This document shows, one piece after another, positions 14,166 through 28,355 of a stretch of DNA of 64,000 bases. Below the pieces are notes generated by a model. It was not told where the DNA came from. It saw only the letters and a program-made list of their open reading frames with translations, and searched no databases. The DNA lies in the sequence record PZ386955.1. One strand, 5' to 3'. The DNA comes from a phage. Each line of letters opens with the position of its first letter. Position 1 is the first letter of the stretch. The translations under genes were made by a program, and so were the position numbers.

Positions 14166-14180
14166 GTTTTTATAGGTGTG

Positions 14181-14199
14181 TGTATGATAATCATTCTCA
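14181..14199. promoter_or_regulatory. Fur-box-like motif, copy 1
   Basis: TGATAATCATTCTC resembles Fur consensus GATAATGATAATCATTATC; followed by GAGAATGAGAAT and a TGAGAAtttTTCTCA palindrome. Confidence 0.35.
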
Positions 14200-14505
14200 G
14201 TAAGAGAATGAGAATCGTTAGCAAATGAGAATTTTTCTCATTTAGAGAATAACGCGCAGGGGTGGTGTTTGTCTCGCGCTCCCGTGTCCCCTCGCCATAC
14301 AATAAGAATAGCATAACCAACAACAAAAGCAAGCGATTATTTCTATCTTTACATTTCTTTACAAATTTATTTTAGACGAGCTACCGGCGATCAACCTTCC
14401 AACCAGTAGTGCCCTGGTATGTTAGCCCCGCCTTTACGCCGTGGGGGTGGCGCTTCCTCTTCTGTATGTAAAACAGTATAAGCCCGATCCCTGGGCTTGT
14501 CAAGA

Positions 14506-14772
14506 TTATTTTTTGTTTTCTTGCCAGGATAGGACACCTAACCAAAAATACATGTCGCCCCGCGCCCCTGGCGGGATCTTGCTTTCCCCGCCGCCACTGC
14601 AAGCCCATAGATAACCATTTGCGAACGTATCAAAATGATCTATCTCTTCCACCTTATGATCGCCCAGGTTGAGAACGGTTTCAACCTTTAAGCCCGTTGC
14701 GCTTGCTACCTGGTGCACCGTGCCGCCTTGCCAGCCCAATGAGTGCATAAGGTGTAAAGTAGTATTTGTCAT
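14506..14772 (-). CDS. hypothetical protein in GC-rich island
   Basis: 88 aa minus-strand ORF inside plus-strand region, with its own minus-strand promoter, hairpin GCGCCAACCAGGGCGC and RBS AAAGAAAGGG. Confidence 0.4.
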   Translation of the reverse strand: MTNTTLHLMHSLGWQGGTVHQVASATGLKVETVLNLGDHKVEEIDHFDTFANGYLWACSGGGESKIPPGARGDMYFWLGVLSWQENKK

Positions 14773-14850
14773 GGTATCGCCCTTTCTTTGATGTGCGCCC
14801 TGGTTGGCGCGGTAGAAAGATAATAGCCCTTTCCTTTATAGATAGCAAGC
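14773..14850 (-). promoter_or_regulatory. inverted PeSL-like unit (promoter + stem-loop) for ORF 14506..14772
   Basis: Minus-strand TTGCTA-N17-TATTAT followed by GC hairpin and RBS. Confidence 0.4.
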
Positions 14851-15143
14851 AAAAAAGAAATGAAAAAAGATTAAAAAAGGGGGTTGACGTTCCTCACCTG
14901 GTAGCGTATTATTCATCTTGTCGAGGGGGGCGAGGCACAACGACAATAAACAAAAGGAGGGCGCAATGTAGGACGGGCAAAGGTGAGGATCTCCATAATC
15001 CACCGTCACAATAACATTACTTATAAAAGGTTGATAACGATGATCAAGAAAGAAAACAGCTTGACGGTTGGAACGATTAACGCTATCATTCTAGCCGTTC
15101 CATTTTGGATTGTAGTAGCGGTTATTATCTTTTAAAAATATTC

Positions 15144-15200
15144 TTGACAACGTTTTTTAATCTGATAAGATGTATCACATAGGGCGGCAATAGTGCCGCT
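15144..15200 (+). promoter_or_regulatory. PeSL-type early promoter + 5' stem-loop
   Basis: TTGACA, -10-like hexamer, hairpin GGGCGGCAATAGTGCCGCTC, RBS, ATG at 15224. Confidence 0.6.
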
Positions 15201-15223
15201 CATAACAGAAGAGAGAAATAATC

Positions 15224-15496
15224 ATGGCATCATATAGCGCATCAATGATCGTAGCTGGCATCACTGGTAAACCTATGCGCGGTGGCGGATCTTTCGCTAA
15301 TATTAATATTGATGGGCGTTTATCCCTGGACGCAGCGATCACCGTGGCACGGGAAACATTTAAAAAAGAATGTAATTTCAATAAACAAGATTATCTCGGC
15401 TTCGTTATTGAAAAAACCGCGCGCTTTGTTGATTATAAAAGCCCGAAAATGGTTGATACTACACTAAAAGCGCAAGATGTAGCATTTTTGCTTTAA
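15224..15496 (+). CDS. hypothetical protein
   Basis: 90 aa ORF immediately downstream of PeSL unit. Confidence 0.6.
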   Translation: MASYSASMIVAGITGKPMRGGGSFANINIDGRLSLDAAITVARETFKKECNFNKQDYLGFVIEKTARFVDYKSPKMVDTTLKAQDVAFLL

Positions 15497-15499
15497 GGC

Positions 15500-15559
15500 T
15501 TGACACTGAAAAATAATTTGGTAATATCTACTACATAGGGCGGGAAATGGTTTCCCGCC
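15500..15559 (+). promoter_or_regulatory. PeSL-type early promoter + 5' stem-loop
   Basis: TTGACA-N16-TAATAT then GGGCGGGAAATGGTTTCCCGCC hairpin. Confidence 0.65.
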
Positions 15560-15581
15560 AAATCAAAGAAAGGGTAACACA

Positions 15582-15944
15582 ATGAGCAAGCAAATCAATA
15601 CTATCATGTTAAACCTGGTATCTTTCCGCGATGACGTGAAAAATCTTTCGCGTGATGCAGTAGATGCACGGATCGAAAGCTATCGCTCACAGATCGCAAC
15701 ATTACCGCTAAAACGTGATCAACATGCCGCTAATATGATGCTTAATGCTATGCTTAAAAAGATGATTCAATGTGATCTTACCCTGGCTTATGAATATGCT
15801 GGCGATCTCTTTGTAACATACAATAAGCCCGTTCCAGGTATGAGCACAACCAAAGAATTGCATGCCTTAAATCTGCGACAAGATGCATGGGATAATATGC
15901 GCCGCGTTATGGTATGGGTAGAAAGCGGCAAAATTTACGCATAA
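15582..15944 (+). CDS. hypothetical protein
   Basis: 120 aa ORF after PeSL. Confidence 0.6.
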   Translation: MSKQINTIMLNLVSFRDDVKNLSRDAVDARIESYRSQIATLPLKRDQHAANMMLNAMLKKMIQCDLTLAYEYAGDLFVTYNKPVPGMSTTKELHALNLRQDAWDNMRRVMVWVESGKIYA

Positions 15945-15949
15945 AGGCT

Positions 15950-16012
15950 TTACATTACACGAAAACCTGATAAGCTATCTTAAAGCGGGAATAGTTCCCG
16001 CTTTCATAGGAT
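15950..16012 (+). promoter_or_regulatory. PeSL-type promoter + stem-loop
   Basis: TTTACA ... hairpin AGCGGGAATAGTTCCCGCT. Confidence 0.5.
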
Positions 16013-16020
16013 AAAACTTT

Positions 16021-16167
16021 ATGAAACAATATGTAATGAGTATTCACACCAAAAACGGCGCTACTGTTACGACTCCGGCACGGTTTGCACTTGTAAACCG
16101 TTGCAAGAGACTAAAACGAGAGTTAAAAAATAACCGTGCAACGGGCTTTAAACGCTGGGGAGGATAA
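16021..16167 (+). CDS. hypothetical small protein (48 aa)
   Basis: Not in track (<60 aa); follows PeSL hairpin. Confidence 0.4.
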   Translation: MKQYVMSIHTKNGATVTTPARFALVNRCKRLKRELKNNRATGFKRWGG

Positions 16168-16169
16168 TC

Positions 16170-16442
16170 TTGTTTTTTCTAAAAGTTTTTGATAATGTGA
16201 TCGCTTTTGAACATGCTACAACGTTCAACCTGGCGAGATACGCTATCAGGTTTAAAGATAATGTTTATCCCCGTGCTGGAGGCGGTTACACTATTTTTAA
16301 TCATCGTAACGCTCAATTAACGGATATAACGAATCCAGATCCTGGAGTGTATCGCATAGGCTGGCTACCGTCAAAAGACGCGGCAAGCATGTTTAAGGTG
16401 TGTAAACTACTAACAGAAGAGGCGAACGAACATGGGGCGTGA
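16170..16442 (+). CDS. hypothetical protein
   Basis: 90 aa, TTG start after RBS GGAGG. Confidence 0.45.
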   Translation: MFFLKVFDNVIAFEHATTFNLARYAIRFKDNVYPRAGGGYTIFNHRNAQLTDITNPDPGVYRIGWLPSKDAASMFKVCKLLTEEANEHGA

Positions 16443-16986
16443 ATATGTGATCCAGTCCTGGGTAAAGCATGATGCTGATGATCCGCGCATAATACCAGAT
16501 GACATGATCGATCACATGGTAGGGTATAGCGGGGAGCAGATAGGAAATCGAGCGGCAAAGAGCAACGGTCACACAAAAACGCGATCCGTTCGCCCTGGTT
16601 GGCTGGCAAATGGTAACGCTGACATTGCAAGCGCCGCAGATCCAAGCGATGACGCTAAAAATAATCCCTTATACAGCATTGATCCGGCTTTTAAGGTGTT
16701 AGAAGAGTATCCCGCTAAATTAGCCGCACTAGATAAGGCATACGAAGAAAAGCGCATGGCATGGACGGTATACAACACCGCTAAGATGGTGCTAGATGCA
16801 AAATTGATTAAAGCCCAGGAGAAGATCAATAAACTTGTTACCATAGCGCAAGAGGAAGACCAGGACGACCAGGAGGAAGAGGAAGAAATCATGCCTACCC
16901 TGGAAGAGGAAGAGATCCAGCCATACATGCCGACGGAAGAGGAAAAAAGACAAGCTCTAAAAAATTATGAAAATTGTGTTGTGTAA
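16432..16986 (+). CDS. hypothetical protein with acidic C-terminal tail
   Basis: 184 aa; C-terminus EEDQDDQEEEEEIMPTLEEEEIQ. Confidence 0.55.
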   Translation: MGREYVIQSWVKHDADDPRIIPDDMIDHMVGYSGEQIGNRAAKSNGHTKTRSVRPGWLANGNADIASAADPSDDAKNNPLYSIDPAFKVLEEYPAKLAALDKAYEEKRMAWTVYNTAKMVLDAKLIKAQEKINKLVTIAQEEDQDDQEEEEEIMPTLEEEEIQPYMPTEEEKRQALKNYENCVV

Positions 16987-16988
16987 GG

Positions 16989-17046
16989 CTTGACATATAC
17001 AAACAAGCCCCGTAATATGTACCACATAAAGCGGGGCAACGCCCCA
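16989..17046 (+). promoter_or_regulatory. PeSL-type promoter + stem-loop
   Basis: TTGACA ... TAATAT ... hairpin GCGGGGCAACGCCCC. Confidence 0.55.
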
Positions 17047-17067
17047 TAAGGTGAAATAAAAAATCAC

Positions 17068-17095
17068 TTGACACCTGAAATCAGTAAGCTATAAT
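17068..17095 (+). promoter_or_regulatory. sigma70-like promoter
   Basis: TTGACA-N16-TATAAT, near-consensus. Confidence 0.55.
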
Positions 17096-17132
17096 GCTTA
17101 TATAGATTGAAACATTACTAAGGAATAAAAGC

Positions 17133-17312
17133 ATGGCTATTATTGCAAAGACTGAGATCGTAGGTTTAGATTCTATCATCCTGGCATATGAGGAAGCTAT
17201 AGAAATGTATGTGGTTTCCTATGGTGATTATATCCGTGAATATAAATCTATTGATCTAGCTTTTGAATGCTATATTCGCCAGGTCAATAAAGCCTATGAT
17301 GATTATCGTTAA
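17133..17312 (+). CDS. hypothetical small protein (59 aa)
   Basis: Not in track; RBS AAGGAA after tandem promoters. Confidence 0.4.
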   Translation: MAIIAKTEIVGLDSIILAYEEAIEMYVVSYGDYIREYKSIDLAFECYIRQVNKAYDDYR

Positions 17313-17331
17313 AAGTTTTAGTCTTGTGCTA

Positions 17332-17361
17332 TTGACAACGAACGATAGTACAAGCATAATA
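17332..17361 (+). promoter_or_regulatory. sigma70-like promoter (no clear stem-loop)
   Basis: TTGACA ... CATAAT upstream of 17408. Confidence 0.45.
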
Positions 17362-17407
17362 ACTTTTATCGGGAATACTCCTAACTAATCAAAAGAGATC
17401 AAAGACT

Positions 17408-17773
17408 ATGGCTAAAAATATCAATGTTTCTGCTTATGCTACCCTGGCTAACACTGCTAAAATTGAACTATCCAGCATTGAAGCGGTACATATTAGCGCC
17501 CGTCGCTGGTTTCAAAAGTCTTATGGTAACACTTATTTCTCTTTGATGGTTGACGTTGAGATCGGCGGTAAACTGATTGAAGTCGTTAACGTTCCGTTTC
17601 ACTATGGCTACGGGGATCATTTTGATACCGTCGCCCTGGAAGAATTTAGCAAGGTTATCAACCTGGAAGGTAAAGACTTTTCAAATTATGCTTACCTTTC
17701 CCGTTTTTGCCGTGATAATGGGATCGCTGTATACAGTCATGCAAGCGATGTTAAACGTAAAAAAGATTTATAA
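17408..17773 (+). CDS. hypothetical protein
   Basis: 121 aa ORF. Confidence 0.6.
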   Translation: MAKNINVSAYATLANTAKIELSSIEAVHISARRWFQKSYGNTYFSLMVDVEIGGKLIEVVNVPFHYGYGDHFDTVALEEFSKVINLEGKDFSNYAYLSRFCRDNGIAVYSHASDVKRKKDL

Positions 17774-17779
17774 AAAGCA

Positions 17780-17838
17780 TTGACAGCACGAATAAAAAGC
17801 ATATAATACTTATATCGAGAGCGGGAATAGTTCCCGCC
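17780..17838 (+). promoter_or_regulatory. PeSL-type promoter + stem-loop
   Basis: TTGACA-N16-TATAAT then AGCGGGAATAGTTCCCGCC hairpin. Confidence 0.65.
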
Positions 17839-17862
17839 TCACTGAAAAAAGAGATTAACATC

Positions 17863-18102
17863 ATGGCTAAATCTAAAATGTTCTTAGGTCACAAAAACAA
17901 AACTCATTGGAATGTAAGCCTTTGGATCAACAACGATGAAGGTTTTTATAATCTTGCGCGTGAATTTATCGCAGCTAACACCAATAAGAATGACGCAGCG
18001 CGTGATATGATGTTATTTCTTGAAAGTATGGATCAAGATAAAACGCCAGACGGTTACAAGTTCAGTAAAACTGCGATCCGCGCCGCGATGGTTGGAATGT
18101 AA
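17863..18102 (+). CDS. hypothetical protein
   Basis: 79 aa ORF after PeSL. Confidence 0.6.
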   Translation: MAKSKMFLGHKNKTHWNVSLWINNDEGFYNLAREFIAANTNKNDAARDMMLFLESMDQDKTPDGYKFSKTAIRAAMVGM

Positions 18103-18197
18103 AGGAGACATAAAAATGAAACATCGTTCGACCTATCTCACAAAACGTTTTAGCTTAGATCATAAATTGGGCTATTACGGAAGAAATAGAAAATAAT

Positions 18198-18257
18198 TTG
18201 ACACTGTTTAAAATTCTGGTATAGTTTATCACATAGGGCGGGAAATGGTTTCCCGCC
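18198..18257 (+). promoter_or_regulatory. PeSL-type promoter + stem-loop
   Basis: TTGACA-N16-TATAGT then GGGCGGGAAATGGTTTCCCGCC. Confidence 0.65.
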
Positions 18258-18279
18258 AAATGAAAGAAAGGTTATCATT

Positions 18280-18507
18280 ATGGCTATCGTTATTGTTCGT
18301 GTATCCGGCACGGTTGGAATCTCCCAGGTAGTAGCAGTTATCACCGAGAAGAAAGGGGATGATCTTCACTCTTCCTTGAATAGCTGGGCGGTCGCTAACT
18401 TCGGGCAATGGTCGAGCGTTGAGTACATCGAATCCTACCAGGTGCCAACGATTAGCCTAACCGATCTAAATGTTGATCGCTTGTTGTGCCTGGATGGATT
18501 AAACTAA
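18280..18507 (+). CDS. hypothetical protein
   Basis: 75 aa ORF after PeSL. Confidence 0.6.
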   Translation: MAIVIVRVSGTVGISQVVAVITEKKGDDLHSSLNSWAVANFGQWSSVEYIESYQVPTISLTDLNVDRLLCLDGLN

Positions 18508-18515
18508 AAATAATC

Positions 18516-18573
18516 TTGACAAGATAACTAAAATCAGTAAAATGTAATGCATCGGGCGGCAATAGTGCCGCTC
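18516..18573 (+). promoter_or_regulatory. PeSL-type promoter + stem-loop
   Basis: TTGACA-N16-TAAAAT then GGGCGGCAATAGTGCCGCTC. Confidence 0.65.
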
Positions 18574-18594
18574 ATAGTAAGAGAGATTATCAAG

Positions 18595-18810
18595 ATGGCT
18601 AATATCCGCACACTGTTAAAAAATGCAAGTCAAGTTTTATTTTCAGATGACGAGTATTTCAACAAAGACATTACAGGCGTGAAAAATTTAAAAGACGTGA
18701 AGGATGTTATCGGTATCCGTGGATCTTTACGTAAAGGTGACATATACGGTAACAAGGTGCAATATAAACTGTCAAAAGATTATGATTTTACTTTGACAAT
18801 TATCAACTAA
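18595..18810 (+). CDS. hypothetical protein
   Basis: Track ORF 18547..18810 begins inside the hairpin; trimmed to ATG (MANIRT) after RBS. Confidence 0.55.
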   Translation: MANIRTLLKNASQVLFSDDEYFNKDITGVKNLKDVKDVIGIRGSLRKGDIYGNKVQYKLSKDYDFTLTIIN

Positions 18811-18821
18811 GGGATCACAAA

Positions 18822-18980
18822 ATGAAAACTTGCCAATGTGGTAAAAAGTCTATCTCTGGTTTAAAACGTGGCGTTGCTCTTTGTCAATATCACTATAACG
18901 CTCAAACGTGGGGTAAGCAGTGGGCGGATCAGGTGGAAGAGGCAAAGAAAGAAAATATAAAAGTAGTTGCAAAGAAATAA
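18822..18980 (+). CDS. small Cys-rich (Zn-ribbon-like) protein (52 aa)
   Basis: Not in track; CQCGKK...CQYHY motif. Confidence 0.4.
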   Translation: MKTCQCGKKSISGLKRGVALCQYHYNAQTWGKQWADQVEEAKKENIKVVAKK

Positions 18981-19004
18981 AAATAGAGTAAACTGTATTC
19001 ATCA

Positions 19005-19028
19005 AGGCGGTGGAATAGCCAACCGCCT
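19005..19028 (+). promoter_or_regulatory. 5' stem-loop (PeSL-type hairpin without clear -35)
   Basis: AGGCGGTGGAATAGCCAACCGCCT just upstream of RBS and ATG 19052. Confidence 0.45.
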
Positions 19029-19051
19029 AACAAAGAGAAGAGGAAAACACC

Positions 19052-19222
19052 ATGATCACTTTCGCCACCCGTGAAGCCGCTCGCAACGTTGCACGTAAAG
19101 TTAATGCCGCCAACCTGGGCGCTACGCTTAAAGCCCCGGTAAAAGATGAATCAGGAAAATGGATCTTCCCTGGTCTGCGTCACGCTGATAAGCTGGGAAC
19201 ATTAACGTTAAAAAATAAATAA
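19052..19222 (+). CDS. hypothetical small protein (56 aa)
   Basis: Not in track; RBS GAGAAGAGGAA. Confidence 0.45.
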   Translation: MITFATREAARNVARKVNAANLGATLKAPVKDESGKWIFPGLRHADKLGTLTLKNK

Positions 19223-19228
19223 TATCCG

Positions 19229-19288
19229 CTTGACAGTAGCATGATTTATAAGTAAAGTAACAACAACGGCGGGAAATGGTTTCCCGCC
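19229..19288 (+). promoter_or_regulatory. PeSL-type promoter + stem-loop
   Basis: TTGACA-N17-TAAAGT then GGCGGGAAATGGTTTCCCGCC. Confidence 0.65.
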
Positions 19289-19308
19289 AACAATAAAGAG
19301 ATAAGATT

Positions 19309-19668
19309 ATGAAATCAGTAAAAGCAATCAAAACTTACATTGTATCGGCTATTTCTTTTGAAGGTACTACAACCGAAAAAGAAAAAATCACCGAACTGAT
19401 GCGCCGTTTTAATTCTGAATACTGGTATCCCGATAATCAAAAACGTTACAATTATAACGTGATCAAGGCGATAGCCTCATGGTTACAAGGTTTACCGTCA
19501 GACATTAACATCGCCTTTGATTATAACGAGATTGATCATTTATTAATTGAATGGAAGTACATAAAAGAAACAAGCAAAGAAACAACCGTTACCCGTGAGC
19601 GGGAAAATTATTGGTTATATATTGCAAGCATGATCGTAATCCTGGCAAAACAGCATAACGTGGCGTAA
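19309..19668 (+). CDS. hypothetical protein
   Basis: 119 aa ORF after PeSL. Confidence 0.6.
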   Translation: MKSVKAIKTYIVSAISFEGTTTEKEKITELMRRFNSEYWYPDNQKRYNYNVIKAIASWLQGLPSDINIAFDYNEIDHLLIEWKYIKETSKETTVTRERENYWLYIASMIVILAKQHNVA

Positions 19669-19683
19669 TTAAGAGGAAGAAAC

Positions 19684-19905
19684 ATGAACGCATCACAGCA
19701 GATCGAAAAATTCAACCGCAGCAAGGCGCGTAAAGATTGGAACGAAGAGATCACCAAAAAAGGCGACAAGCGGAACAAAACAAAGAGAGATCGCAGCACA
19801 AAAAGATACTGGAACGAATAACAAAAAAGGGCGCAATAAGCGCCCTTTTAGCTTATATAGAGGCTTGTTACCCATAGGCAATGGTAACGCCAGGATAAGC
19901 CTATA
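19684..19905 (+). CDS. questionable ORF (73 aa) reading through a terminator hairpin
   Basis: ATG after RBS AAGAGGAAGAAAC; frame continues through the 19823-19848 hairpin; not in supplied track. Confidence 0.25.
19823..19848 (+). terminator. rho-independent terminator-like hairpin
   Basis: GGGCGC-AATAA-GCGCCC followed by TTTT. Confidence 0.5.
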
Positions 19906-19939
19906 AACCACGTTAGACAGCTTTACAGGAGCTTTAAAA

Positions 19940-20122
19940 ATGAAATTAGACGAAATAAGCAAGGCACTAGCCCAGGGGCAAAGGTTATGCGCCCGATATC
20001 GTGATCAATATGGCTTCATAACTAGCGGCGTGATCCTGGGGATTGAAGGCAATAAGATTTTTATTGACACGTTGAAAAACGTTGTATATAGTGACAATAT
20101 AATCTCAATAAAACATATATGA
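19940..20122 (+). CDS. hypothetical protein
   Basis: 60 aa ORF, RBS CAGGAG. Confidence 0.5.
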   Translation: MKLDEISKALAQGQRLCARYRDQYGFITSGVILGIEGNKIFIDTLKNVVYSDNIISIKHI

Positions 20123-20130
20123 GGCAAGAA

Positions 20131-20532
20131 ATGAAAAAATTATTGATCGCTGGTTTAATCTCTTTTGGCATGGTTGGAACATCTAGCGCGGCGATATCCT
20201 CCACAGTAGCAGAATTAAGCGCCGTTGATGCAATGGAAAACGTCATGCTTATTAATAATGCGATCCCCGATGAAATCATGGAGGATTCACACATGATCGC
20301 TTATGGTGCTGTTACACAACTAACGGCAAAAATAGATAAATCTATTGTTAATGGCTTAAATGAAGATGTACCATGTGAAATTATTACCAGTGTGCTGACT
20401 ACTCAAAATTTTACGCCGTGGTTAAAAAGTATTCAAAAAGTACACAGTACAGCCGCAGATCGTAGCAATGAAAAACTAGTGTCAGCCCTTGCAACGTATA
20501 CCCTAGCAAAATGCACCGAGATAAAAGATTGA
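20131..20532 (+). CDS. putative secreted protein
   Basis: Start at internal ATG (MKKLLIAGLISFGMVGTSSAA signal-peptide-like) after RBS GAGG. Confidence 0.55.
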   Translation: MKKLLIAGLISFGMVGTSSAAISSTVAELSAVDAMENVMLINNAIPDEIMEDSHMIAYGAVTQLTAKIDKSIVNGLNEDVPCEIITSVLTTQNFTPWLKSIQKVHSTAADRSNEKLVSALATYTLAKCTEIKD

Positions 20533-20579
20533 CAACATAGAAAGCACGTTATAAGATACACACAACAAAGGAGAACTAC

Positions 20580-20882
20580 ATGAACGGCATAGCTAAAACG
20601 TTTTTTCTTTTTTCTGGTGTAAATGATCCATCAATAAAAGTCGATAGTGTAAAAGAAAACAATACTATCACCGCTAAATTGTTTCAAGATGAAACAAATA
20701 ACGTGCTAATCATTAATCTTAAAGAAATAACGAAAGGTTATTATACTATTGCTTACCATGCGATTTATCATGCTGGTACTAGTGAGGAAGTGCAAACAAG
20801 CAACAACGAAAGCGCGGCGCTACCTGGTGATCTGGTACTGGGCGTTATCAGTTTAATTGTCAATGATTTTTTTAAGGAGTAA
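20580..20882 (+). CDS. hypothetical protein
   Basis: 100 aa, RBS AAGGAGAA. Confidence 0.55.
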   Translation: MNGIAKTFFLFSGVNDPSIKVDSVKENNTITAKLFQDETNNVLIINLKEITKGYYTIAYHAIYHAGTSEEVQTSNNESAALPGDLVLGVISLIVNDFFKE

Positions 20883-21140
20883 AACCATGCCCTATTTACA
20901 TTTATTTTTCGGTATCTTATTGACGGGATCTTTTTTCTTCTGTATGCTTGTTTCTATTGTAAACCACGTTTTAAGACATTAAGGAAACAGCATGAAAATT
21001 ATTCCCGTACAATATAGCGTAATAAATCCAGCATACGAGGAAGGAAGGAAAACAAGCATGGCTTTATGTTGTATTGCTACTATAGCCATGTTGTTATACA
21101 TTGTGTTTTAATAGGTTTTATAGTTGTACGCTTTAAAGGC

Positions 21141-21169
21141 TTGACAATTTTTTGTTATGCTTTAAACTA
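21141..21169 (+). promoter_or_regulatory. sigma70-like promoter
   Basis: TTGACA-N17-TAAACT upstream of 21212. Confidence 0.4.
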
Positions 21170-21211
21170 TATCTTGAAAACGGCAAAGGCCGCAAACAAA
21201 AGGGTAAAATT

Positions 21212-21535
21212 ATGAAATCTGTGATCGGTGTTTATTTGGATAACTCTGATTTTTTCTATCATCGCGCTCGTTTCCTTGATGCTATTGATATGATAGAATC
21301 AGGCTTTAAAGAGTATCGCCTTGCACATGATGACCTGGAAGCATTACAGGGCAATAGTGTTTTTACATTGCAAGCTAAAGCACTATGCAAAAGCCGGATC
21401 GACATTGCGAGCAAAAAGATAGAACGCGGCATGTCCTGGTTGCGCACCGCAGAAATCAACATGGGGCAATGGTACGGCGAAAACTTAGAAAATAAACATA
21501 CTTTTGTCAATGTAGAAAATATTGAAGATTATTGA
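21212..21535 (+). CDS. hypothetical protein
   Basis: Track ORF 21152..21535 trimmed to ATG (MKSVIG) after RBS AAGGG. Confidence 0.55.
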   Translation: MKSVIGVYLDNSDFFYHRARFLDAIDMIESGFKEYRLAHDDLEALQGNSVFTLQAKALCKSRIDIASKKIERGMSWLRTAEINMGQWYGENLENKHTFVNVENIEDY

Positions 21536-21598
21536 TTGACAGCACACCTAACAGATAGTATATTGTATCTCATAGAGCGGGGAAATGGTTTCCCCGCC
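21536..21598 (+). promoter_or_regulatory. PeSL-type promoter + stem-loop
   Basis: TTGACA ... TAGTAT then GCGGGGAAATGGTTTCCCCGCC. Confidence 0.65.
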
Positions 21599-21617
21599 TT
21601 AACAGAAGAGATAAGAT

Positions 21618-21902
21618 ATGAAGATCACAAAAGCACTTTCCAACTATGCAGCACGTCGCGGATTATGTTTAACCGTTGAAAATTTAGGGAAAGAAGATTT
21701 TTTGTGCTTTTGGGAGCTTGAGAATGATAATGAGTGGATCTTCTCTTATTCTATCTGCGAAGATCAAAACGGTTGTTTATTAACCTGGCGCGGTAATATC
21801 TATTTACCGGAAGAAATCAAGGAAGAATTACCAGGCACGATCATGACTGAGAAACAGCTTAAGGAAGTGATTAATTTTGTAGGGCAAAACATTAAAAAAT
21901 AA
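21618..21902 (+). CDS. hypothetical protein
   Basis: 94 aa ORF after PeSL. Confidence 0.6.
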   Translation: MKITKALSNYAARRGLCLTVENLGKEDFLCFWELENDNEWIFSYSICEDQNGCLLTWRGNIYLPEEIKEELPGTIMTEKQLKEVINFVGQNIKK

Positions 21903-21903
21903 T

Positions 21904-21963
21904 TTGACACCAGGCAAACAACGTAGTAAAGTTTATCACATAGGGCGGGAAATGGTTTCCCGC
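21904..21963 (+). promoter_or_regulatory. PeSL-type promoter + stem-loop
   Basis: TTGACA-N16-TAAAGT then GGGCGGGAAATGGTTTCCCGC. Confidence 0.65.
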
Positions 21964-21985
21964 TCACAACAAAAGAGAACAAATC

Positions 21986-22156
21986 ATGATCCCGACTATG
22001 TTTTACGTATCGCGCAAAGGTCACAATATTTTTTGGTCTGAAGATTTAAATGAAGCCATGACGTTTGCCCGTGATCGTGTTGCTATCGGTGGCGTTAACA
22101 TTACTGTAACCGATGAAAACGGCATTGAATACTATAACGGCGACGATGAAGAGTAA
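21986..22156 (+). CDS. hypothetical small protein (56 aa)
   Basis: Not in track; follows PeSL and RBS AAAGAGAA. Confidence 0.45.
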   Translation: MIPTMFYVSRKGHNIFWSEDLNEAMTFARDRVAIGGVNITVTDENGIEYYNGDDEE

Positions 22157-22163
22157 TTAATGA

Positions 22164-22184
22164 GGCGGGGGAGTATTCCCCGCC
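22164..22184 (+). promoter_or_regulatory. 5' stem-loop (PeSL-type hairpin)
   Basis: GGCGGGGGAGTATTCCCCGCC just upstream of RBS and ATG 22204. Confidence 0.45.
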
Positions 22185-22203
22185 GTCAATAAAGAGGTAA
22201 ATC

Positions 22204-22473
22204 ATGAAAATATCATTGGACGTTGCAATCAAGGCCATCGAATCCGGTTACACCCTGGTAAAAGATGATAAGGCTAAAATAGTGCATCATGTTAACAAGG
22301 AAACAGGCGAAAGCATGATCACATATAAAGCCGCCTACTTTCTCCAATCAGTAGCAGATCCGCGCGTACAGCGCCAGGTCACGGCGGCTATTGCTAAAAA
22401 ATTATGTGCTTTACAGGGCACAAGTTTTAACGAGATCCCGCCGTGTTTTGACTGGTCGAGCTTGAAAAAATAG
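22204..22473 (+). CDS. hypothetical protein
   Basis: 89 aa ORF. Confidence 0.6.
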   Translation: MKISLDVAIKAIESGYTLVKDDKAKIVHHVNKETGESMITYKAAYFLQSVADPRVQRQVTAAIAKKLCALQGTSFNEIPPCFDWSSLKK

Positions 22474-22474
22474 T

Positions 22475-22531
22475 TTGACAAAAATTATAAATCGGGTAGA
22501 ATGTATTTCGTAGGGCGGCAATAGTGCCGCT
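22475..22531 (+). promoter_or_regulatory. PeSL-type promoter + stem-loop
   Basis: TTGACA-N16-TAGAAT then GGGCGGCAATAGTGCCGCTC. Confidence 0.65.
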
Positions 22532-22553
22532 CGCAACTAAAAGAGAAATCATC

Positions 22554-22748
22554 ATGGCGCTTAAAAAACTAACAAGCAATACTCGTTGGGATGAAATCGA
22601 CGGGGAAGTATACATTTTCGCCCGTAAACCAGGTGATCAAAAATGGTCAAAGGCTTTTACTTGTCACCCTGCAACAATAGATCTAATAAAAAGTAAAGGT
22701 TTACGTGAAGCAGTAGCGAGAAGTTTACTGATTCCTTGTAAAAAATAG
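22554..22748 (+). CDS. hypothetical protein
   Basis: Track ORF 22524..22748 trimmed to ATG (MALKKL) downstream of hairpin. Confidence 0.55.
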   Translation: MALKKLTSNTRWDEIDGEVYIFARKPGDQKWSKAFTCHPATIDLIKSKGLREAVARSLLIPCKK

Positions 22749-22749
22749 T

Positions 22750-22811
22750 TTGACAATATGCGGTTATCTGGTAAAGTGTACCACGTAGGGCGGGGCAATA
22801 AGGCAACGCCC
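22750..22811 (+). promoter_or_regulatory. PeSL-type promoter + stem-loop
   Basis: TTGACA-N16-TAAAGT then GC-rich hairpin GGGCGGGGCAATAAGGCAACGCCC. Confidence 0.55.
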
Positions 22812-22944
22812 ACTAATGAGGGTAAAATCATGTTAGAGAAAATTTTCACGGTTGTAATAGTGGGCCTGGCGTTATCGGTTGGAGTGATTGCAACTATGGC
22901 TAACATGATCCTATCTTCCCACGGTATTGGATAAGGTGAATCAA

Positions 22945-23160
22945 ATGATCACGAATAAGACAGGTAAAACGGAATTTTTACGCGGCTTGCAAATAGGTAA
23001 ACCTGAGATCTGGCATTGCACTAAAAGACCACGTGACGAAATGAAAGATTTCACCGCTACTTTACAACGTGTTAAAATATCTATCACACAGAAAAAAGCC
23101 TTGTTAGTAGTAGAAAATGAGATACCGCAAACCATTATTATTGTCGAGCGTACAGCATGA
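22945..23160 (+). CDS. hypothetical protein
   Basis: Track ORF 22927..23160 trimmed to ATG after RBS AAGGTGA; a possible 34-aa membrane peptide ORF (~22830-22934) precedes it. Confidence 0.5.
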   Translation: MITNKTGKTEFLRGLQIGKPEIWHCTKRPRDEMKDFTATLQRVKISITQKKALLVVENEIPQTIIIVERTA

Positions 23161-23543
23161 AAACTGAAATCATTATTGAAATCATCAACGGTTATAAAGA
23201 AGCCTTTATTTTTGCTGAATCAGCCAGGGATCATGAAGGCTATTTTATTGATAACTTAGACGATTATGATTTTTCAGATCAAGCCCATCAGAGGATCATT
23301 CATGACGTAGCGGCTTATTGTGATGCCAATGATGCTGCTATCTCTGAGGCAATGAGCGACGGCGCTACAGCAAACCAGATCGGGAATGATTTACATTTTA
23401 CCCGTAACGGTCACGGCGTAGGCTTTTGGGATCGCCCTGAAATATACACTACTAACACCGCCAACCGCCTAACAAATGCAGCTAAATTAATGCCATCGGT
23501 GCATGCTTACATTGGTGAAGATAATTTGATTTATATTGAATAA
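23157..23543 (+). CDS. hypothetical protein
   Basis: 128 aa, ATGA overlap with upstream gene. Confidence 0.6.
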   Translation: MKTEIIIEIINGYKEAFIFAESARDHEGYFIDNLDDYDFSDQAHQRIIHDVAAYCDANDAAISEAMSDGATANQIGNDLHFTRNGHGVGFWDRPEIYTTNTANRLTNAAKLMPSVHAYIGEDNLIYIE

Positions 23544-23549
23544 AAAGTA

Positions 23550-23608
23550 TTGACACCGATCCCCAGTATGTTATTATTTACCACGTAGGCGGGAAATGGT
23601 TTCCCGCC
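23550..23608 (+). promoter_or_regulatory. PeSL-type promoter + stem-loop
   Basis: TTGACA ... TATTAT then GGCGGGAAATGGTTTCCCGCC. Confidence 0.65.
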
Positions 23609-23631
23609 AGGTAATCAAAAAGGTAAATACT

Positions 23632-24021
23632 ATGCGCAACCTGGTTTCTGTTTCTAACGTTGAAAAATTCCAATCCTTGCAGGGTATCGTTAACAACGTA
23701 GCGCCTTTTTTAGTCAATGGCTTGATTGCAAAGATGAAAAATAAACATCATGCGGCATGGTCTGCTTACTGCTTTGATAATGATGAAAAAGCGGCTGAAA
23801 TGATGTTAAATATGCTGTTAGACAGTGTAGAATCATCTTTACCGGAAAACATCGCAGAAGAGATCACCTATCGTTATAATATGGCGATCACTTACCAGGA
23901 AGTGGCGCAGTTTAACATGATGGATGAAGATGACCAACAGGATCAGGAAATGTTTTGGGAGTATGCAGATCGTCAATCGGCTTTTGATGAAAAGTTAGCG
24001 ATGTATTATAACGAATATTAA
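23632..24021 (+). CDS. hypothetical acidic protein
   Basis: Track ORF 23596..24021 starts inside hairpin; trimmed to ATG (MRNLVS) after RBS AAAAGG. Confidence 0.55.
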   Translation: MRNLVSVSNVEKFQSLQGIVNNVAPFLVNGLIAKMKNKHHAAWSAYCFDNDEKAAEMMLNMLLDSVESSLPENIAEEITYRYNMAITYQEVAQFNMMDEDDQQDQEMFWEYADRQSAFDEKLAMYYNEY

Positions 24022-24033
24022 TACACGGCAAAA

Positions 24034-24062
24034 GAAAGGGGCGCACTAAGCGCCCTTTTTTG
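24034..24062 (+). terminator. rho-independent terminator
   Basis: GGGGCGC-ACTAA-GCGCCCC followed by TTTTTT. Confidence 0.65.
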
Positions 24063-24408
24063 TATTCTTTTTTCACAATGGAAGCGACACGTAAAGAATA
24101 GGCGTAAAGGTGGCGTAAAACCATCTAAAACCGACTGTAACCGCTTAAACAAGGTAGGAATGATTAATCACCTTACCAGGATGAAAAAGCTGTTATAAAG
24201 CTATCTAGAGCGTTTAAAGCACATAGGAAATAATTTGCTTTTTATCTTGCCTTTTGTCCTACTTTTGATTATTATTATGGAACGGGCGGCACCTGGGAGC
24301 AGGGGAAGATAATCACCGGAAGATCCCGCTATATATTGATAGCTAATATCTATTAAACAACAAAACATCAAAGGAATAAACTATCAAATCTTTACAATCT
24401 TATCTATT

Positions 24409-24437
24409 GACCAATAAATCACAATAGTTTAATATTG
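24409..24437 (+). promoter_or_regulatory. sigma70-like promoter
   Basis: TTGACC-N17-TAATAT upstream of 24484. Confidence 0.4.
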
Positions 24438-24483
24438 TTTTTAGAGGGTAGAATATTCCCCGAACGAAAACAGGAAAAAGAAA

Positions 24484-24720
24484 ATGAAAGAAGTCATGAT
24501 CCTCAAAAAATCACCTATTTTACGTGGCGGTTTTATCGCTTACTCTGATGATCTGTTAATTGCAACAGTTGCAAAAATACTAAAATCAGAAGATGACAGT
24601 AAAAACGGCGTTTATCGTATCTGTTTCACCCGTGGAAAATTACAAGGCAAGATCGCTTATGCCTTTGATTTACAAGATGTAAACGATAAAATATGCGCTG
24701 TTATTGATTATGCAAAATAA
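24484..24720 (+). CDS. hypothetical protein
   Basis: 78 aa ORF, RBS AGGAAAAAG. Confidence 0.55.
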   Translation: MKEVMILKKSPILRGGFIAYSDDLLIATVAKILKSEDDSKNGVYRICFTRGKLQGKIAYAFDLQDVNDKICAVIDYAK

Positions 24721-24732
24721 TTAATTTTCTTA

Positions 24733-24760
24733 TTGACACCGGATCACGCTTACATTATTA
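24733..24760 (+). promoter_or_regulatory. sigma70-like promoter
   Basis: TTGACA ... CATTAT upstream of 24808. Confidence 0.45.
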
Positions 24761-24807
24761 TTTATCACGTAGGGCAAATCATTTTAAACGGTAAACGAGG
24801 AATCACC

Positions 24808-25191
24808 ATGAGCAATATCATCAACCTGGCGGCTACTGTAAACGGTAAAGATTTTAACGGCGCTGTAGATCGTGATCCTATGTGGTGCTTATCAGTGTTT
24901 AAAGGCGATCTGGTTGAAGTTAGAACAACCGAAGGTTATAGCGACGATTATAAATGCGAGATTCATTTACACAACTGGTACACGGGTAAAACTTATGCGC
25001 TGAATCATGCGTTTATCGGGAAAATTGAATATCGCGAGATGATCGACGAGGAAACCGGGCAAGATTTTAGCGAAAACGTTTATATTCGTTCCGAGACATT
25101 AGCCGAACGTTTGATCGAGAAGATGAAAGCAAAAAATAAAATTAATTTAGCTCATTGGATTGATATAACAAACGATCCAGCTTATCAATAA
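24808..25191 (+). CDS. hypothetical protein
   Basis: Track ORF 24733..25191 overlaps promoter; trimmed to ATG (MSNIIN) after RBS ACGAGGAA. Confidence 0.55.
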   Translation: MSNIINLAATVNGKDFNGAVDRDPMWCLSVFKGDLVEVRTTEGYSDDYKCEIHLHNWYTGKTYALNHAFIGKIEYREMIDEETGQDFSENVYIRSETLAERLIEKMKAKNKINLAHWIDITNDPAYQ

Positions 25192-25205
25192 ATAACATTT
25201 CACAC

Positions 25206-25232
25206 CAGGGCGCACAAAGCGCCCTTTCTTTT
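25206..25232 (+). terminator. rho-independent terminator
   Basis: GGGCGC-ACAAA-GCGCCC followed by TTTCTTTT. Confidence 0.6.
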
Positions 25233-25490
25233 ACCTCAATAAAGATGATAGCTTTTACCTATCAAAAACGTTCACCGAAAAAAGTGAATAGATCGCGGTA
25301 TCGAGCTAATCAAGGAGCAGATGAACAACCATACCATGAAGATCATAAGGCGCTTACAACGCGTTTTAGACCGCTTGTTTTTAATTTCTCCATGTAACTA
25401 TCTGGCAAAAACAGCCTTTTTCTTGTCTTTCCTCTTAAATAATAATCATTCTCATTTGTAGCTGATTATTTATGCAATAAACTGAATAAT

Positions 25491-25514
25491 GCAATAATGA
25501 TAATCATTCTTAAC
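25491..25514. promoter_or_regulatory. Fur-box-like motif, copy 2
   Basis: AATAATGATAATCATTCTT, 16 of 19 matches to GATAATGATAATCATTATC; partial copy at 25441-25458. Confidence 0.4.
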
Positions 25515-25885
25515 TTAAGACCATCTAACCTATAAAATAATAAGCTATCTAACTAAATTAAAGCTAATTATCTCACCTTTATTTATAACTTACTGTTACT
25601 ATCTCATTGATAACCTTATATTAAACAACAATAACTAATATAAATCATTACCAAGCTAAAGATAAGCTATCTAACCTTTAAAACTATAACTATAATCTAT
25701 CGAATTGTTGCACAAAGTAACTATTAAATTGTTAGTAACATTACTAAATAATTAATATCCTATCTATTTATGATCTAATCTTTACCTTCCTATCTATTAC
25801 CTAAATAATCATTTCATACAATAACTATAACAAGAAATATAATTCGCAAGCGTATCATTAGCAGCCTATGCCGGACACATAGGCG

Positions 25886-27310: not shown

Positions 27311-27311
27311 A

Positions 27312-28354: not shown

Positions 28355-28355
28355 C

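Follow-up and report, generated by a model that had tools for sequence, protein, structure and literature searches.

Small-gene cassettes with a promoter-proximal hairpin in a Justusliebigvirus genome resemble the promoter-early stem-loop elements of T4-like phages

Promoter-early stem-loop elements (PeSLs) are cassettes that combine a strong early promoter with a stem-loop made of a G run and a C run and the last parts of which are a Shine-Dalgarno sequence and a start codon (Arbiol et al. 2010, PMC2839356; Comeau et al. 2014, PMC4122927). They are known from the T4-like phages RB49/phi1, T4/PST, and KVP40/nt-1, where they are enriched in hyperplastic regions beside ORFans and have been implicated in indels between close relatives; the stem-loop has been interpreted as a terminator or attenuator, and the cassettes can form mini-circles (PMC2839356, PMC4122927). 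The stem-loop usually lies between the −35 and −10 elements or over the −10 element, and in one of five subclasses it is found past the −10 element and before the start site. We analyzed a 64,000-nucleotide stretch of phage DNA (PZ386955.1; the whole stretch is called the window below) in which an array of small open reading frames (ORFs) at positions 15144 to 25232 is punctuated by cassettes of a similar kind, consisting of a host-type promoter, a GC-rich hairpin, and a ribosome-binding site.

The cassettes of the array share several features with PeSLs: a sigma-70-like early promoter with an AT-rich upstream stretch (here A-rich and holding the upstream stop codon), a stable G-run/C-run stem-loop inside the intergenic cassette, a 3' end formed by a Shine-Dalgarno sequence and the start codon, a location in a hyperplastic region associated with ORFans, end points of indels and replacements between close relatives that fall in the cassettes, and degraded or "half" cassettes near indels. 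They differ in that the stem-loop begins 9 to 14 nt past the −10 element and extends past the predicted start site, which matches at best the rarest PeSL subclass, and in that it has no U-tract, whereas that of RB49 is viewed as a terminator for upstream transcription. In the RB49 intergenic regions, which were read directly, the stem-loop was located between the −35 and −10 elements (TTGACA GGGGATCACCGATCCCC TATAAT) or over the −10 element and should therefore be absent from its cassette's own transcript. The core of the cassettes described here is also common to different phage families, and the genome that carries them is not that of a T4-type myovirus. Several Escherichia phages, among them ESCO8, Nernie, and Paula, matched the 10-kb region at 96 to 98% identity along 92 to 100% of its length. 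These are myoviruses of 146 to 149 kb in the genus Justusliebigvirus (subfamily Stephanstirmvirinae, type phage phi92); on this sequence identity the source is a phi92/ESCO8/Paula-like Justusliebigvirus. The match to PeSLs proposed in the sequence-only reading was upheld by the compact promoter, stem-loop, and ribosome-site cassettes, the ORFan block, and the differences between relatives at the cassettes, but not by the position of the stem-loop or the missing T-run, and the T4-type setting that was proposed with it proved incorrect. Overall, the cassettes are PeSL-like in evolution and general make-up and differ in stem-loop position, likely molecular role, and genome type.

We favor, with a probability of roughly 0.6, a reading in which the array consists of about 21 portable early-expression cassettes, with a hairpin in the 5' untranslated region (5' UTR) that would act as a stabilizer or insulator, and in which these cassettes double as recombination linkers. 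PeSLs have so far been documented only in T4-like phages and have been little followed up; what appears to be new here is a 5'-UTR hairpin cassette, PeSL-like in evolution, that is located outside the T4-like phages and is common to several phage families. Such cassettes were not found described in the literature on phi92-, phAPEC8-, rV5-, and 121Q-like phages, a coverage outside which the phi92 and PVP-SE1 genome papers lie, so that prior mention there is possible; the rV5 paper lists promoters and terminators separately. The favored reading would show a cassette-linker device for ORFans in another, very well sampled group of therapeutic coliphages, with hundreds of genomes, and the crossing of cassettes and genes between phage families, and the presence of the hairpin in the mRNA rather than in the promoter would point to a role at the RNA level. 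It makes testable both how large virulent phages gain and reshuffle early accessory genes and what the GC stem-loop does in such cassettes, which are compact natural expression parts that pack a strong promoter, a hairpin at the 5' end, and a ribosome site into about 80 bp.

Other described systems resemble the array in part. The stem-loop in the ompA 5' UTR reportedly stabilizes mRNA in Escherichia coli, as Emory, Bouvet, and Belasco are said to have found in 1992. Stabilizers of this type and engineered 5' hairpin cassettes have in common with the array a stable hairpin near the 5' end, a short leader, and a strong ribosome site; they are found at single genes or as synthetic parts, whereas the array has a repeated, exchangeable module in about 20 copies, with a putative stabilizing effect. 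In the host-takeover module of Bacillus phage SPO1, as in the T5 and T7 early regions, small early genes lie near the terminus, and each group of them has its own very strong host-type promoter and strong ribosome site; the array likewise clusters small early genes, mostly of unknown function, near a genome terminus or terminal repeat; to our knowledge, neither a conserved promoter-proximal hairpin nor cassette-mediated shuffling is part of the descriptions of these modules. Integron attC arrays also have small promiscuous ORFs that are separated by imperfect inverted repeats and vary in content among close relatives, but here each unit has its own promoter in place of a common Pc promoter, the crossovers look homologous, and no integrase was found in or beside the array, either in the window or in annotated relatives. 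The nut/boxB sites of lambda and the put sites of HK022 are small RNA hairpins just past early promoters; there is one per operon and RNA polymerase is modified for antitermination, whereas the array hairpins had no sequence similarity to these sites and no evidence of an antitermination role was found for them. Lambdoid morons (Juhala/Hendrix) are single genes with their own promoter (and terminator) and without conserved flanks, for which illegitimate recombination has been proposed (PMC2839356). The array genes similarly bring their own promoters, but conserved cassettes supply the homology.

Counts and anatomy of the cassettes

The exact hexamer TTGACA occurred 19 times on the plus strand between 15144 and 24733, which is half of the 38 copies on that strand in the whole 64 kb. 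Promoters that matched the consensus at 10 or more of 12 positions numbered 18 on the plus strand and 1 on the minus strand of the array region (15144 to 25225), compared to a mean of 2.9 and a maximum of 7 in dinucleotide shuffles. When a strict cassette was defined as a promoter matching at 9 or more of 12 positions and a stem of 6 bp or more, four or more of them G-C pairs, starting 5 to 16 nt past the −10 element, 10 were detected on the plus strand and none on the minus strand (mean of 0.07 and maximum of 1 in 200 shuffles). A looser count, which included the weaker cases at 15949, 16990, 18967, 21141, 22750, and 24407, gave about 16 units of promoter plus hairpin, and the earlier figure of at least 16 cassettes was a fair one on this looser definition. 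Four promoters (17068, 17332, 20064, and 20529) had no good hairpin, one (24733) had its hairpin removed by recombination, and one hairpin (22164) had no promoter. A hairpin was present, as read by eye, at about 16 of 21 promoter junctions and at about 1 of 10 promoter-less junctions. These counts showed a strongly non-random and strand-specific array of consensus host-type promoters, each with a hairpin of fixed geometry and a ribosome site, and we have little doubt that the promoter-cassette architecture is real.

A scan of the complete genome of ESCO8, a 97% identical phage, detected 21 cassettes, compared to 1 to 7 in shuffles; 11 of them were in the array and the rest had unrelated hairpins. 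The layout is therefore concentrated in the array, and its description as a genome-wide modular feature was overstated. The four minus-strand examples on which that description drew all exist, and two of them, running from 14848 to 14770 and from 61027 to 60945, have the layout of the array. The unit running from 41463 to 41378 has a terminator-type hairpin (A-tract, stem, T-tract), and in that running from 63225 to 63161 the hairpin abuts the −10 element and the transcript probably lacks the 5' arm.

The cassettes could be aligned end to end as units of about 80 bp. In the 5' part, the stop codon of the upstream gene lies inside an A-rich stretch, often as TAAGGC or AAAAATAAT/AAAAATAGT. The promoter is a near-consensus sigma-70 promoter, with TTGACA, a spacer of 16 to 17 nt, TAnnnT, and in at least five cases a TGn before the −10 element. 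A conserved start-site segment of 9 to 11 nt, TATCAC(A/G)TAG, separates the −10 element from a GC hairpin of 7 to 10 bp, which is followed by an A-rich leader of about 20 nt with a GAG, GGA, or AGG motif (Shine-Dalgarno) and by the ATG. The distance from the −10 element to the hairpin was 9 to 14 nt, and in every cassette the motif was present and the ATG lay 17 to 25 nt past the hairpin. There were 12 strong hairpins of 7 to 10 bp, mostly of −13 to −14 kcal/mol (−9.8 for the 7-bp stem at 17821), and about 5 weaker ones. Three main types were distinguished, GG(G)CGGGAAA-TGG-TTTCCCGCC, GGGCGGCA-ATAG-TGCCGCTC, and GCGGGAA-TAG-TTCCCGC, all built on the base GGCGG...CCGC(C/T)C with AAT(A/G)G at the apex. 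The hairpins singled out by the sequence-only reading were found exactly as quoted, with GGGCGGCAATAGTGCCGCTC at 15182, 18554, and 22513 and GG(G)CGGGAAATGGTTTCCCGCC at 15539, 18237, 19268, 21943, and 23588.

The features of the array and of the outlying units are given below, with promoters written as −35 hexamer, spacer length in nucleotides, and −10 hexamer (preceded by TGn in parentheses where present).

14506 to 14772, minus strand: ORF of the divergent cassette, a homologue of phi92 gp224
14770 to 14848, minus strand: divergent cassette at the left edge of the array, with TTGCTA-17-TATTAT, 9 nt, hairpin GCGCCAACCAGGGCGC, A-rich ribosome-binding site, and ATG at 14772
14884 to 15135, plus strand: TTGACG-17-TATTAT and a weak hairpin, the first promoter to point rightward, placed back-to-back with that of the minus strand
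15041 to 15135, plus strand: ORF for a membrane peptide of 31 aa, under the first rightward promoter
15144 to 15226, plus strand: cassette 1, TTGACA-16-(TGa)TAAGAT, 10 nt GTATCACATA, hairpin GGGCGGCAATAGTGCCGCTC at 15182 to 15201, ribosome-binding site, and ATG at 15224; ORF 15224 to 15496 (90 aa)
15500 to 15584, plus strand: cassette 2, TTGACA-16-TAATAT, hairpin GGCGGGAAATGGTTTCCCGCC at 15539 to 15559, ATG at 15582
15582 to 15944, plus strand: ORF of cassette 2 (120 aa), with homologues in rV5-like and 121Q-like phages
15949 to 16023, plus strand: cassette 3, weak −35 element TTTACA, hairpin AAAGCGGGAATAGTTCCCGCTTT at 15982 to 16004; ORFs 16021 to 16167, 16170 to 16442, and 16432 to 16986
16990 to 17045, plus strand: orphan cassette, TTGACA-17-TAATAT, 5-bp hairpin GGGGCAACGCCCC at 17033 to 17045, no ORF ahead of the next promoter
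17068 to 17135, plus strand: hairpin-less consensus promoter TTGACA-16-TATAAT; ORF 17133 to 17312
17323 to 17410, plus strand: promoter of ORF 17408 to 17773, TTGACA-17-CATAAT, with a weak downstream hairpin
17323 to 17354: 12-bp inverted repeat CTTGTGCTATTGACAACGAACGATAGTACAAG around the promoter of ORF 17408, overlapping the −35 element
17780 to 17865, plus strand: cassette with TTGACA-16-TATAAT and hairpin GCGGGAATAGTTCCCGC at 17821 to 17837 (extended GAG-A-...-CTC); ORF 17863 to 18102
18198 to 18282, plus strand: cassette with TTGACA-16-(TGg)TATAGT and hairpin at 18237 to 18257; ORF 18280 to 18507
18516 to 18597, plus strand: cassette with TTGACA-16-TAAAAT and hairpin at 18554 to 18573; ORF 18595 to 18810 and promoter-less ORF 18822 to 18980
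18967 to 19054, plus strand: cassette with weak promoter TTGCAA-16-TAAACT and hairpin at 19005 to 19028; ORF 19052 to 19222
19230 to 19311, plus strand: cassette with TTGACA-17-TAAAGT and hairpin at 19268 to 19288; ORFs 19309 to 19668 and 19684 to 19821
19825 to 19849, both strands: bidirectional intrinsic terminator AAAAGGGCGCAATAAGCGCCCTTTT, in which TTTT forms part of the stem
20064 to 20582, plus strand: two hairpin-less promoters, at 20064 (TTGACA-17-TATAGT) and 20529 (TTGACA-17-TAAGAT); ORFs 20131 to 20532 and 20580 to 20882
21141 to 21214, plus strand: cassette with 4-bp hairpin CGGCAAAGGCCG at 21181 to 21192; ORF 21212 to 21535
21536 to 21620, plus strand: cassette with TTGACA-17-TATATT and hairpin GCGGGGAAATGGTTTCCCCGC at 21577 to 21597; ORF 21618 to 21902
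21904 to 21988, plus strand: cassette with TTGACA-17-TAAAGT and hairpin GGGCGGGAAATGGTTTCCCGCTC at 21943 to 21965; ORF 21986 to 22156
22164 to 22206, plus strand: promoter-less hairpin GGCGGGGGAGTATTCCCCGCC, then a ribosome-binding site and ATG at 22204; ORF 22204 to 22473
22475 to 22556, plus strand: cassette with TTGACA-16-TAGAAT and hairpin at 22513 to 22532; ORF 22554 to 22748
22750 to 22832, plus strand: cassette with TTGACA-16-(TGg)TAAAGT and imperfect hairpin at 22788 to 22811; ORFs 22830 to 22934, 22945 to 23160, and 23157 to 23543
23550 to 23634, plus strand: cassette with TTGACA-16-(TGt)TATTAT and hairpin at 23588 to 23608; ORF 23632 to 24021
24033 to 24061, plus strand: intrinsic terminator, GGGGCGCACTAAGCGCCC and T-run
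24407 to 24486, plus strand: weak cassette with TTGACC-17-TAATAT and marginal hairpin at 24446 to 24461; ORF 24484 to 24720
24733 to 24810, plus strand: hybrid cassette with TTGACA-17-TATTAT and TTATCACGTAGGGC, leader without hairpin; ORF 24808 to 25191 (Pfam Phage_30_8)
25207 to 25225, plus strand: intrinsic terminator that closes the array
41378 to 41463, minus strand: outlying unit with TTGACA-18-(TGg)TATAAT, 15 nt, terminator-type hairpin AAAGCCCCAATCAGGGGCTTT and ATTTGTGTGG, ribosome-binding site, and ATG at 41380
60945 to 61027, minus strand: outlying cassette with TTGACT-17-TAGTAT, 11 nt, hairpin AGGAGAGCTATGCTCTCCT, ribosome-binding site, and ATG at 60947
63161 to 63225, minus strand: outlying unit with TTGACG-16-TATTAT, hairpin CGCTCCCACAAATGGGAGCG abutting the −10 element, ribosome-binding site, and ATG at 63163

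The orphan cassette at 16990 to 17045 is probably a relic of recombination. The inverted repeat at 17323 to 17354 looks like an operator or a PeSL-type stem-loop over the −35 element; a similar repeat was observed ahead of homologous genes in jumbo phage 121Q (17637 to 17666 and near 15150).

Position, conservation, and possible roles of the hairpin

Transcription start sites were predicted from the position of the −10 element only and were assumed to lie about 7 nt past it, at an A of CACATA. On this basis, the hairpin begins 3 to 5 nt into the transcript, reaches to about +25, and stops close to the upstream edge of a ribosome positioned at the start codon. As the hairpin always lies 3' of the −10 element, each cassette should transcribe it as the 5' end of its own mRNA.

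Comparison of related phages indicated that the structure is kept while the sequence changes. The gene starting MIPTMFYVSRKG is preceded by the GGGAAATGGTTTCCC hairpin type in the window, Paula, Nernie, KKE7M, cardinal, and Antha and by the GGCAATAGTGCC type in ESCO8, muut, and UAB_1, which are 96 to 97% identical phages; the site orthologous to the cassette at 21904 has the other hairpin type (GGGCGGCAATAGTGCCGCTC) in the latter three. The hairpin type also differed for several genes common to the window and Phapecoctavirus ESCO13. Homologues of the 120-aa gene at 15582 that are 62 to 70% identical were found in Vequintavirus FV3 and in 121Q, where they have a promoter and hairpin of like geometry and wholly different stems (GGGGCAAACGTCTTGCCCC; GACGGGGGAAACGCTCCCGTT). 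A MAFFT alignment of whole cassettes misaligned hairpins of unequal length, and loop-centered fixed windows were used instead; the minimum base-pair probability of the hairpin in the full leader gave no information, owing to breathing of the closing A-U pairs. Among 59 distinct promoter-associated triloop hairpins, 91% of cells were paired and two-sided changes were detected at 7 of 9 pairs, with a covariation score of 0.443, compared to 0.205 in column shuffles (reached by 0 of 500) and at most 0.174 when the partner was slid. Structural conservation of the hairpin across lineages was shown by these sequence comparisons.

The pattern of substitutions was informative about the strand. Nearly all single substitutions within a hairpin type, A to G in the 5' arm or C to T in the 3' arm, gave a G·T pair on the sense strand, and at least 8 distinct interior G·U events were counted versus 1 to 2 of A·C. 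The sense fold was more stable in 68 of 88 distinct hairpins and, with a strand-neutral seed of Watson-Crick pairs only and fixed windows, in 61 of 95 (P = 0.007). A role in the sense transcript or the non-template DNA strand was favored over an antisense terminator, to a moderate and not decisive degree.

According to the reading that we favor, unmodified host RNA polymerase would fire each promoter straight after infection, and the hairpin would form the 5' terminus of each primary transcript, about 3 to 5 nt past the predicted start. With the hairpin folded and the ribosome bound, little of the 5' RNA would be exposed, and the message would thereby be shielded, on the principle of the ompA leader, from 5'-end-dependent decay through RppH and RNase E. 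The hairpin would also insulate the ribosome site from whichever ORF is plugged in, while in read-through transcripts it would be internal and might act as a processing site or an exonuclease barrier. The repeated 80-bp cassettes would in addition be substrates for the phage's homologous recombination system; as shown by comparison, these cassettes, and their 13- to 20-nt CAYRTAGGGCGGG core especially, are the sites at which small ORFan genes are added, deleted, replaced, and permuted by homologous recombination among relatives and, apparently, also between phage families infecting the same hosts. The stabilizer or insulator role of the hairpin, taken by itself, is put forward tentatively, at slightly less than even odds. 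Several points weigh against the favored reading. The inner five pairs of the covariation set were present by construction (selection required 5 bp or more), some of its two-sided changes were register shifts between stem lengths, the asymmetry between sense and antisense folds was moderate, and the sequences are not independent. A shift of 3 to 4 nt in the predicted starts would alter the length of the single-stranded 5' tail, which decides protection, and the hairpin is not obligatory, since 4 to 5 of the array promoters do not have one. The conservation of the base GGCGG...CCGCY and the recurrence of both the G·U and the AAT(A/G)G apex could moreover indicate a specific binding partner and not generic stabilization.

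Such a partner is central to the alternative that survives best, that the hairpin is a cis-acting RNA element read by a trans-acting phage or host protein which controls the early cassette mRNAs together, as a switch for shut-off, stabilization, processing, or translational control (compare T4 RegB/RegA and lambda N on boxB). All hairpin types have the base GGCGG...CCGCC/CCGCTC, in which the second pair is recurrently G·U, and carry either GAA-N3-TTC or AAT(A/G)G at the apex, and this shared base and apex span Stephanstirmvirinae, Vequintavirinae, and 121Q; the core is about 90% conserved across families ahead of unrelated genes, and the bias to the sense strand is as such an element would have it. 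The loops vary among lineages, however (TAG, TGG, CAC, TGT, AAC, and ACA), the lower stems covary freely, as fits a structural requirement, and recombination from cassette to cassette would homogenize the sequence without any binding partner. With no candidate protein identified and no matching Rfam family, we regard this alternative as unlikely. A search of the 64 kb against Rfam 15 gave no match at gathering thresholds, and a permissive scan of 14.5 to 27.5 kb gave three sub-threshold matches at chance level, none of them on a cassette hairpin. The exact 23-mer hairpin motif was absent from 185,579 bacterial and archaeal genomes and so is not a host repeat. CsrA-type GGA loops and N4-type hairpin promoters were dropped on sequence grounds, and RNase III substrates were dropped because the stems are too short.

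The classic PeSL interpretation, in which the hairpins are terminators or attenuators of upstream read-through and the promoter then restarts transcription, was judged improbable. This function has been proposed, and in part shown by a lacZ reporter, for the RB49 PeSL stem-loop (PMC2839356), which attenuated reporter transcription without a classical U-tract, a finding that also counts against the reading we favor. Damping of cumulative read-through would make sense in an array with many promoters and only three canonical terminators, which are present, as had been noted earlier, at 19825 to 19849, 24033 to 24061, and 25207 to 25225. However, an efficient terminator located 3' of the cassette's own start would abort its own transcript, and the position of the hairpin is fixed relative to the −10 element, whereas the RB49 stem-loops lie inside the promoter. 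On the sense strand, all 12 strong hairpins had only 0 to 2 T's in the next 8 nt, compared to 5 to 6 at the real terminators 24033 and 25207, while that at 19825 has TTTT inside the stem; on the antisense strand, 1 of the 12 (19267 to 19289) was terminator-like. The combination of a GC stem and a U-run was thus absent from the promoter-proximal hairpins and present at 24033 and 25207 (plus strand) and at 19825 (bidirectional), and the lack of a U-tract argues against efficient intrinsic termination at the cassette hairpins. The Paula record (LR865361.1) labels several promoter-proximal hairpins as terminators, which would favor the classic interpretation, although on the minus strand, opposite to the genes. 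As these hairpins have no T-runs, the labels are probably an artifact of automatic prediction.

Recombination at the cassettes and their spread among phages

The region from 14000 to 26500 of the window was aligned to the homologous regions of 11 relatives, and internal block ends were clustered as breakpoints. Of the 43 breakpoint clusters, 33 were inside cassette intervals, which were taken from 15 nt before the −35 element to 8 nt past the ATG and make up 21.4% of the region (binomial P = 1.6e-14). Breakpoints within genes are removed by selection, and the intergenic DNA here consists almost wholly of cassettes, so this enrichment alone is no proof that cassettes promote recombination. Stronger evidence was obtained from flanking repeats, hybrid cassettes, and hairpin swaps. 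Neighboring alignment blocks overlapped by 15 to 45 nt, and the indels are therefore flanked by cassette repeats; in ESCO13, the same genes were present in a permuted order, and hairpin types were swapped ahead of the same gene in 97% identical phages. When three joints were read base by base, two crossovers were located in the start-site/5'-arm segment and one at the start codon. ESCO8 has an extra 292-bp unit (hairpin, gene, and next promoter), with the crossover in the shared TATCRYGTAGGGC, TATC(A/G)(C/T)GTAGGGC, which explains the hairpin-less promoter of the window's cassette at 24733. In KKE7M, a further cassette and gene are present at 22750, with the crossover in CACGTAGGGCGGG, CAC(G/A)TAGGGCGGG. 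ORF 17133 to 17312 is absent from muut, phi92, and UAB_1, and in muut the homologue of ORF 17408 is joined to the 17068 promoter at a shared ATGGCTA. We consider the role of the cassettes as recombination linkers to be probable.

A very improbable alternative is that the inverted repeat acts as DNA, extruded as a cruciform or folded into a single-strand hairpin on which a recombinase or endonuclease acts, so that the cassettes would be site-specifically mobile like attC. Crossovers at or beside the 5' arm would agree with this, as would the one-strand tolerance of G·T, which also fits a single-stranded DNA hairpin; the PeSL authors considered that the GGGG...CCCC stem-loop is perhaps the target of a DNA-binding protein (PMC2839356), and ESCO8 has a gene annotated as resolvase/invertase-like elsewhere in its genome. 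However, no recombinase gene was found in or beside the array, the crossover points vary (start-site segment, 5' arm, or ATG) as homologous recombination over short identities would have it, and a role at the DNA level alone leaves the fixed spacing to the −10 element and the ATG unexplained. That the hairpin is a functionless passenger, copied with a successful promoter cassette by duplication or gene conversion, agrees with the many recurrences of a few exact hairpin sequences and with the promoters that have none (17068, 20064, 20529, and 24733), but is barely credible given that a stable hairpin persists at an unchanged position in different lineages although the stems differ and show two-sided changes, that G·U is tolerated and A·C rare, and that the geometry is constant across three phage groups.

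A BLAST search with one cassette detected 134 phage records, mostly with 2 to 5 detectable copies, and most of the records listed were Justusliebigvirus or Phapecoctavirus. The same geometry, with other or identical hairpins, was present in the small-gene arrays of Vequintavirus FV3 (rV5-like), 121Q, and GAP31/4MG/PVP-SE1-like phages. At least 18 cassettes were found in 28 kb of 121Q, where TTGCAA-16-TATAAT, with GTTTTACATCGAGA behind it, is the usual promoter. Of the 28 array ORFs, eight had homologues in the 121Q array (31 to 84% amino acid identity, in a shuffled order) and four had homologues in FV3 (70 to 98%, three of them at 89 to 98%), including ORF 22554 to 22748, which is 98% identical in FV3 and has the same hairpin there. 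The stretch from the −10 element to the hairpin of the cassette at 17780 (TATAAT ACTTATATCGAGAGCGGGAATAGTTCCCGCCT) was nearly identical in 121Q, ahead of an unrelated protein (E = 2.1), and the core was about 90% conserved between phage families ahead of unrelated genes. These shared cores and homologues indicated that different phage families infecting the same hosts have the cassettes, together with a pool of small early genes, in common.

A more far-reaching proposal, which we regard as speculative and on balance unlikely, though arguable, is that the hairpin (GGCGG...CCGCY with a recurrent G·U and a GAA-N3-UUC apex) is an undescribed 5'-UTR element which large enterobacterial myoviruses of three or more groups (phi92-like, rV5/PVP-SE1-like, and jumbo 121Q-like) carry in their early-gene cassettes, that a common trans-acting factor reads it and so governs the fate of all early cassette mRNAs jointly, and that the cassettes form an integrase-free exchange system. 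If this were true, unrelated phages would trade small host-takeover or anti-defense genes already equipped for expression.

In IMG/VR, the exact hairpin 20-mer was present in two contigs only, both of the same phage group. Composite promoter-plus-hairpin patterns matched 55 and 16 stretches, with several cassettes only in contigs of 137 to 153 kb and 348 kb and in a few others; one multi-cassette contig was GAP31/4MG-like. About 40 scattered single matches to a 17-mer of the second hairpin type were regarded as chance, and the many single matches to the composite patterns were not interpretable. A 74-kb uncultivated viral contig, IMGVR_UViG_3300044641_007991, had three units of promoter, 5' hairpin, and ribosome-binding site and had no match among 50,697 phage records. 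The cassette design may be more widespread than the named groups.

Two observations concern the records of other phages. Positions 1 to 1013 of Enterococcus phage heks (MT119359.1), a siphovirus record, were 92 to 95% identical to window positions 14852 to 14931 joined to 15181 to 16118, a segment that comprises two array genes and a cassette. This record is most likely a chimeric assembly from a laboratory sequencing coliphages in parallel and not a real transfer. About 20 "Campylobacter phage" records of about 146 kb (MG065639, MG065645, MG065689, and others) were about 95.6% identical to the array region of the coliphages, and their host assignment looks doubtful.

Genes and surroundings of the array

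The array holds 28 ORFs of 34 to 184 aa, with one to three per cassette. The ten longest, which were those tested, all belonged to PHROGs of unknown function, and Phage_30_8 (T4 gp30.8-like) was the only Pfam family; the array is an ORFan block, that is, a hyperplastic early-gene block. Coverage of the array region across 288 related records ranged from 62% to 100%.

In phi92 and Salmonella phage UAB_1, the records of which begin at the physical ends, the homologous block (gp225 to gp248) is the last coding block and is transcribed toward a 343-bp right direct terminal repeat, the array ending about 1 kb ahead of it. Alignment to these phages projected the start of the terminal repeat to near 26,290 of the window, and the 1.7-kb gene-free stretch from 25232 to 26950 therefore holds the genome ends. 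This stretch is AT-rich and has short repeated motifs, ATAAGCTATCTAAC near 25541, 25662, and 26060 and ATGATAATCATT near 25445, 25499, 26369, and 26560, which could be candidate packaging or replication signals.

On the far side, from 27000 to 38600 (49.5 to 61.2 kb of ESCO8), the next approximately 35 small genes lie on the same strand in tight operons with overlapping stops and starts, and no strict cassette was found in this block. Two very different styles of small-gene organization therefore adjoin in one genome.

Within the array, the 345 bp from 24062 to 24406, between the terminator at 24033 to 24061 and the next cassette, had no ORF or consensus promoter; the alignments to cardinal and ESCO13 pick up again at 24252 to 24263, which indicates that part of this segment is variable among relatives. 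The promoter-less ORF 18822 to 18980 encodes a Cys/His-rich protein of 52 aa (CQCG...CQYHYN). It was present in the window, Nernie, and ESCO8 and absent from most relatives, and an 83% identical homologue was found in the 121Q array.

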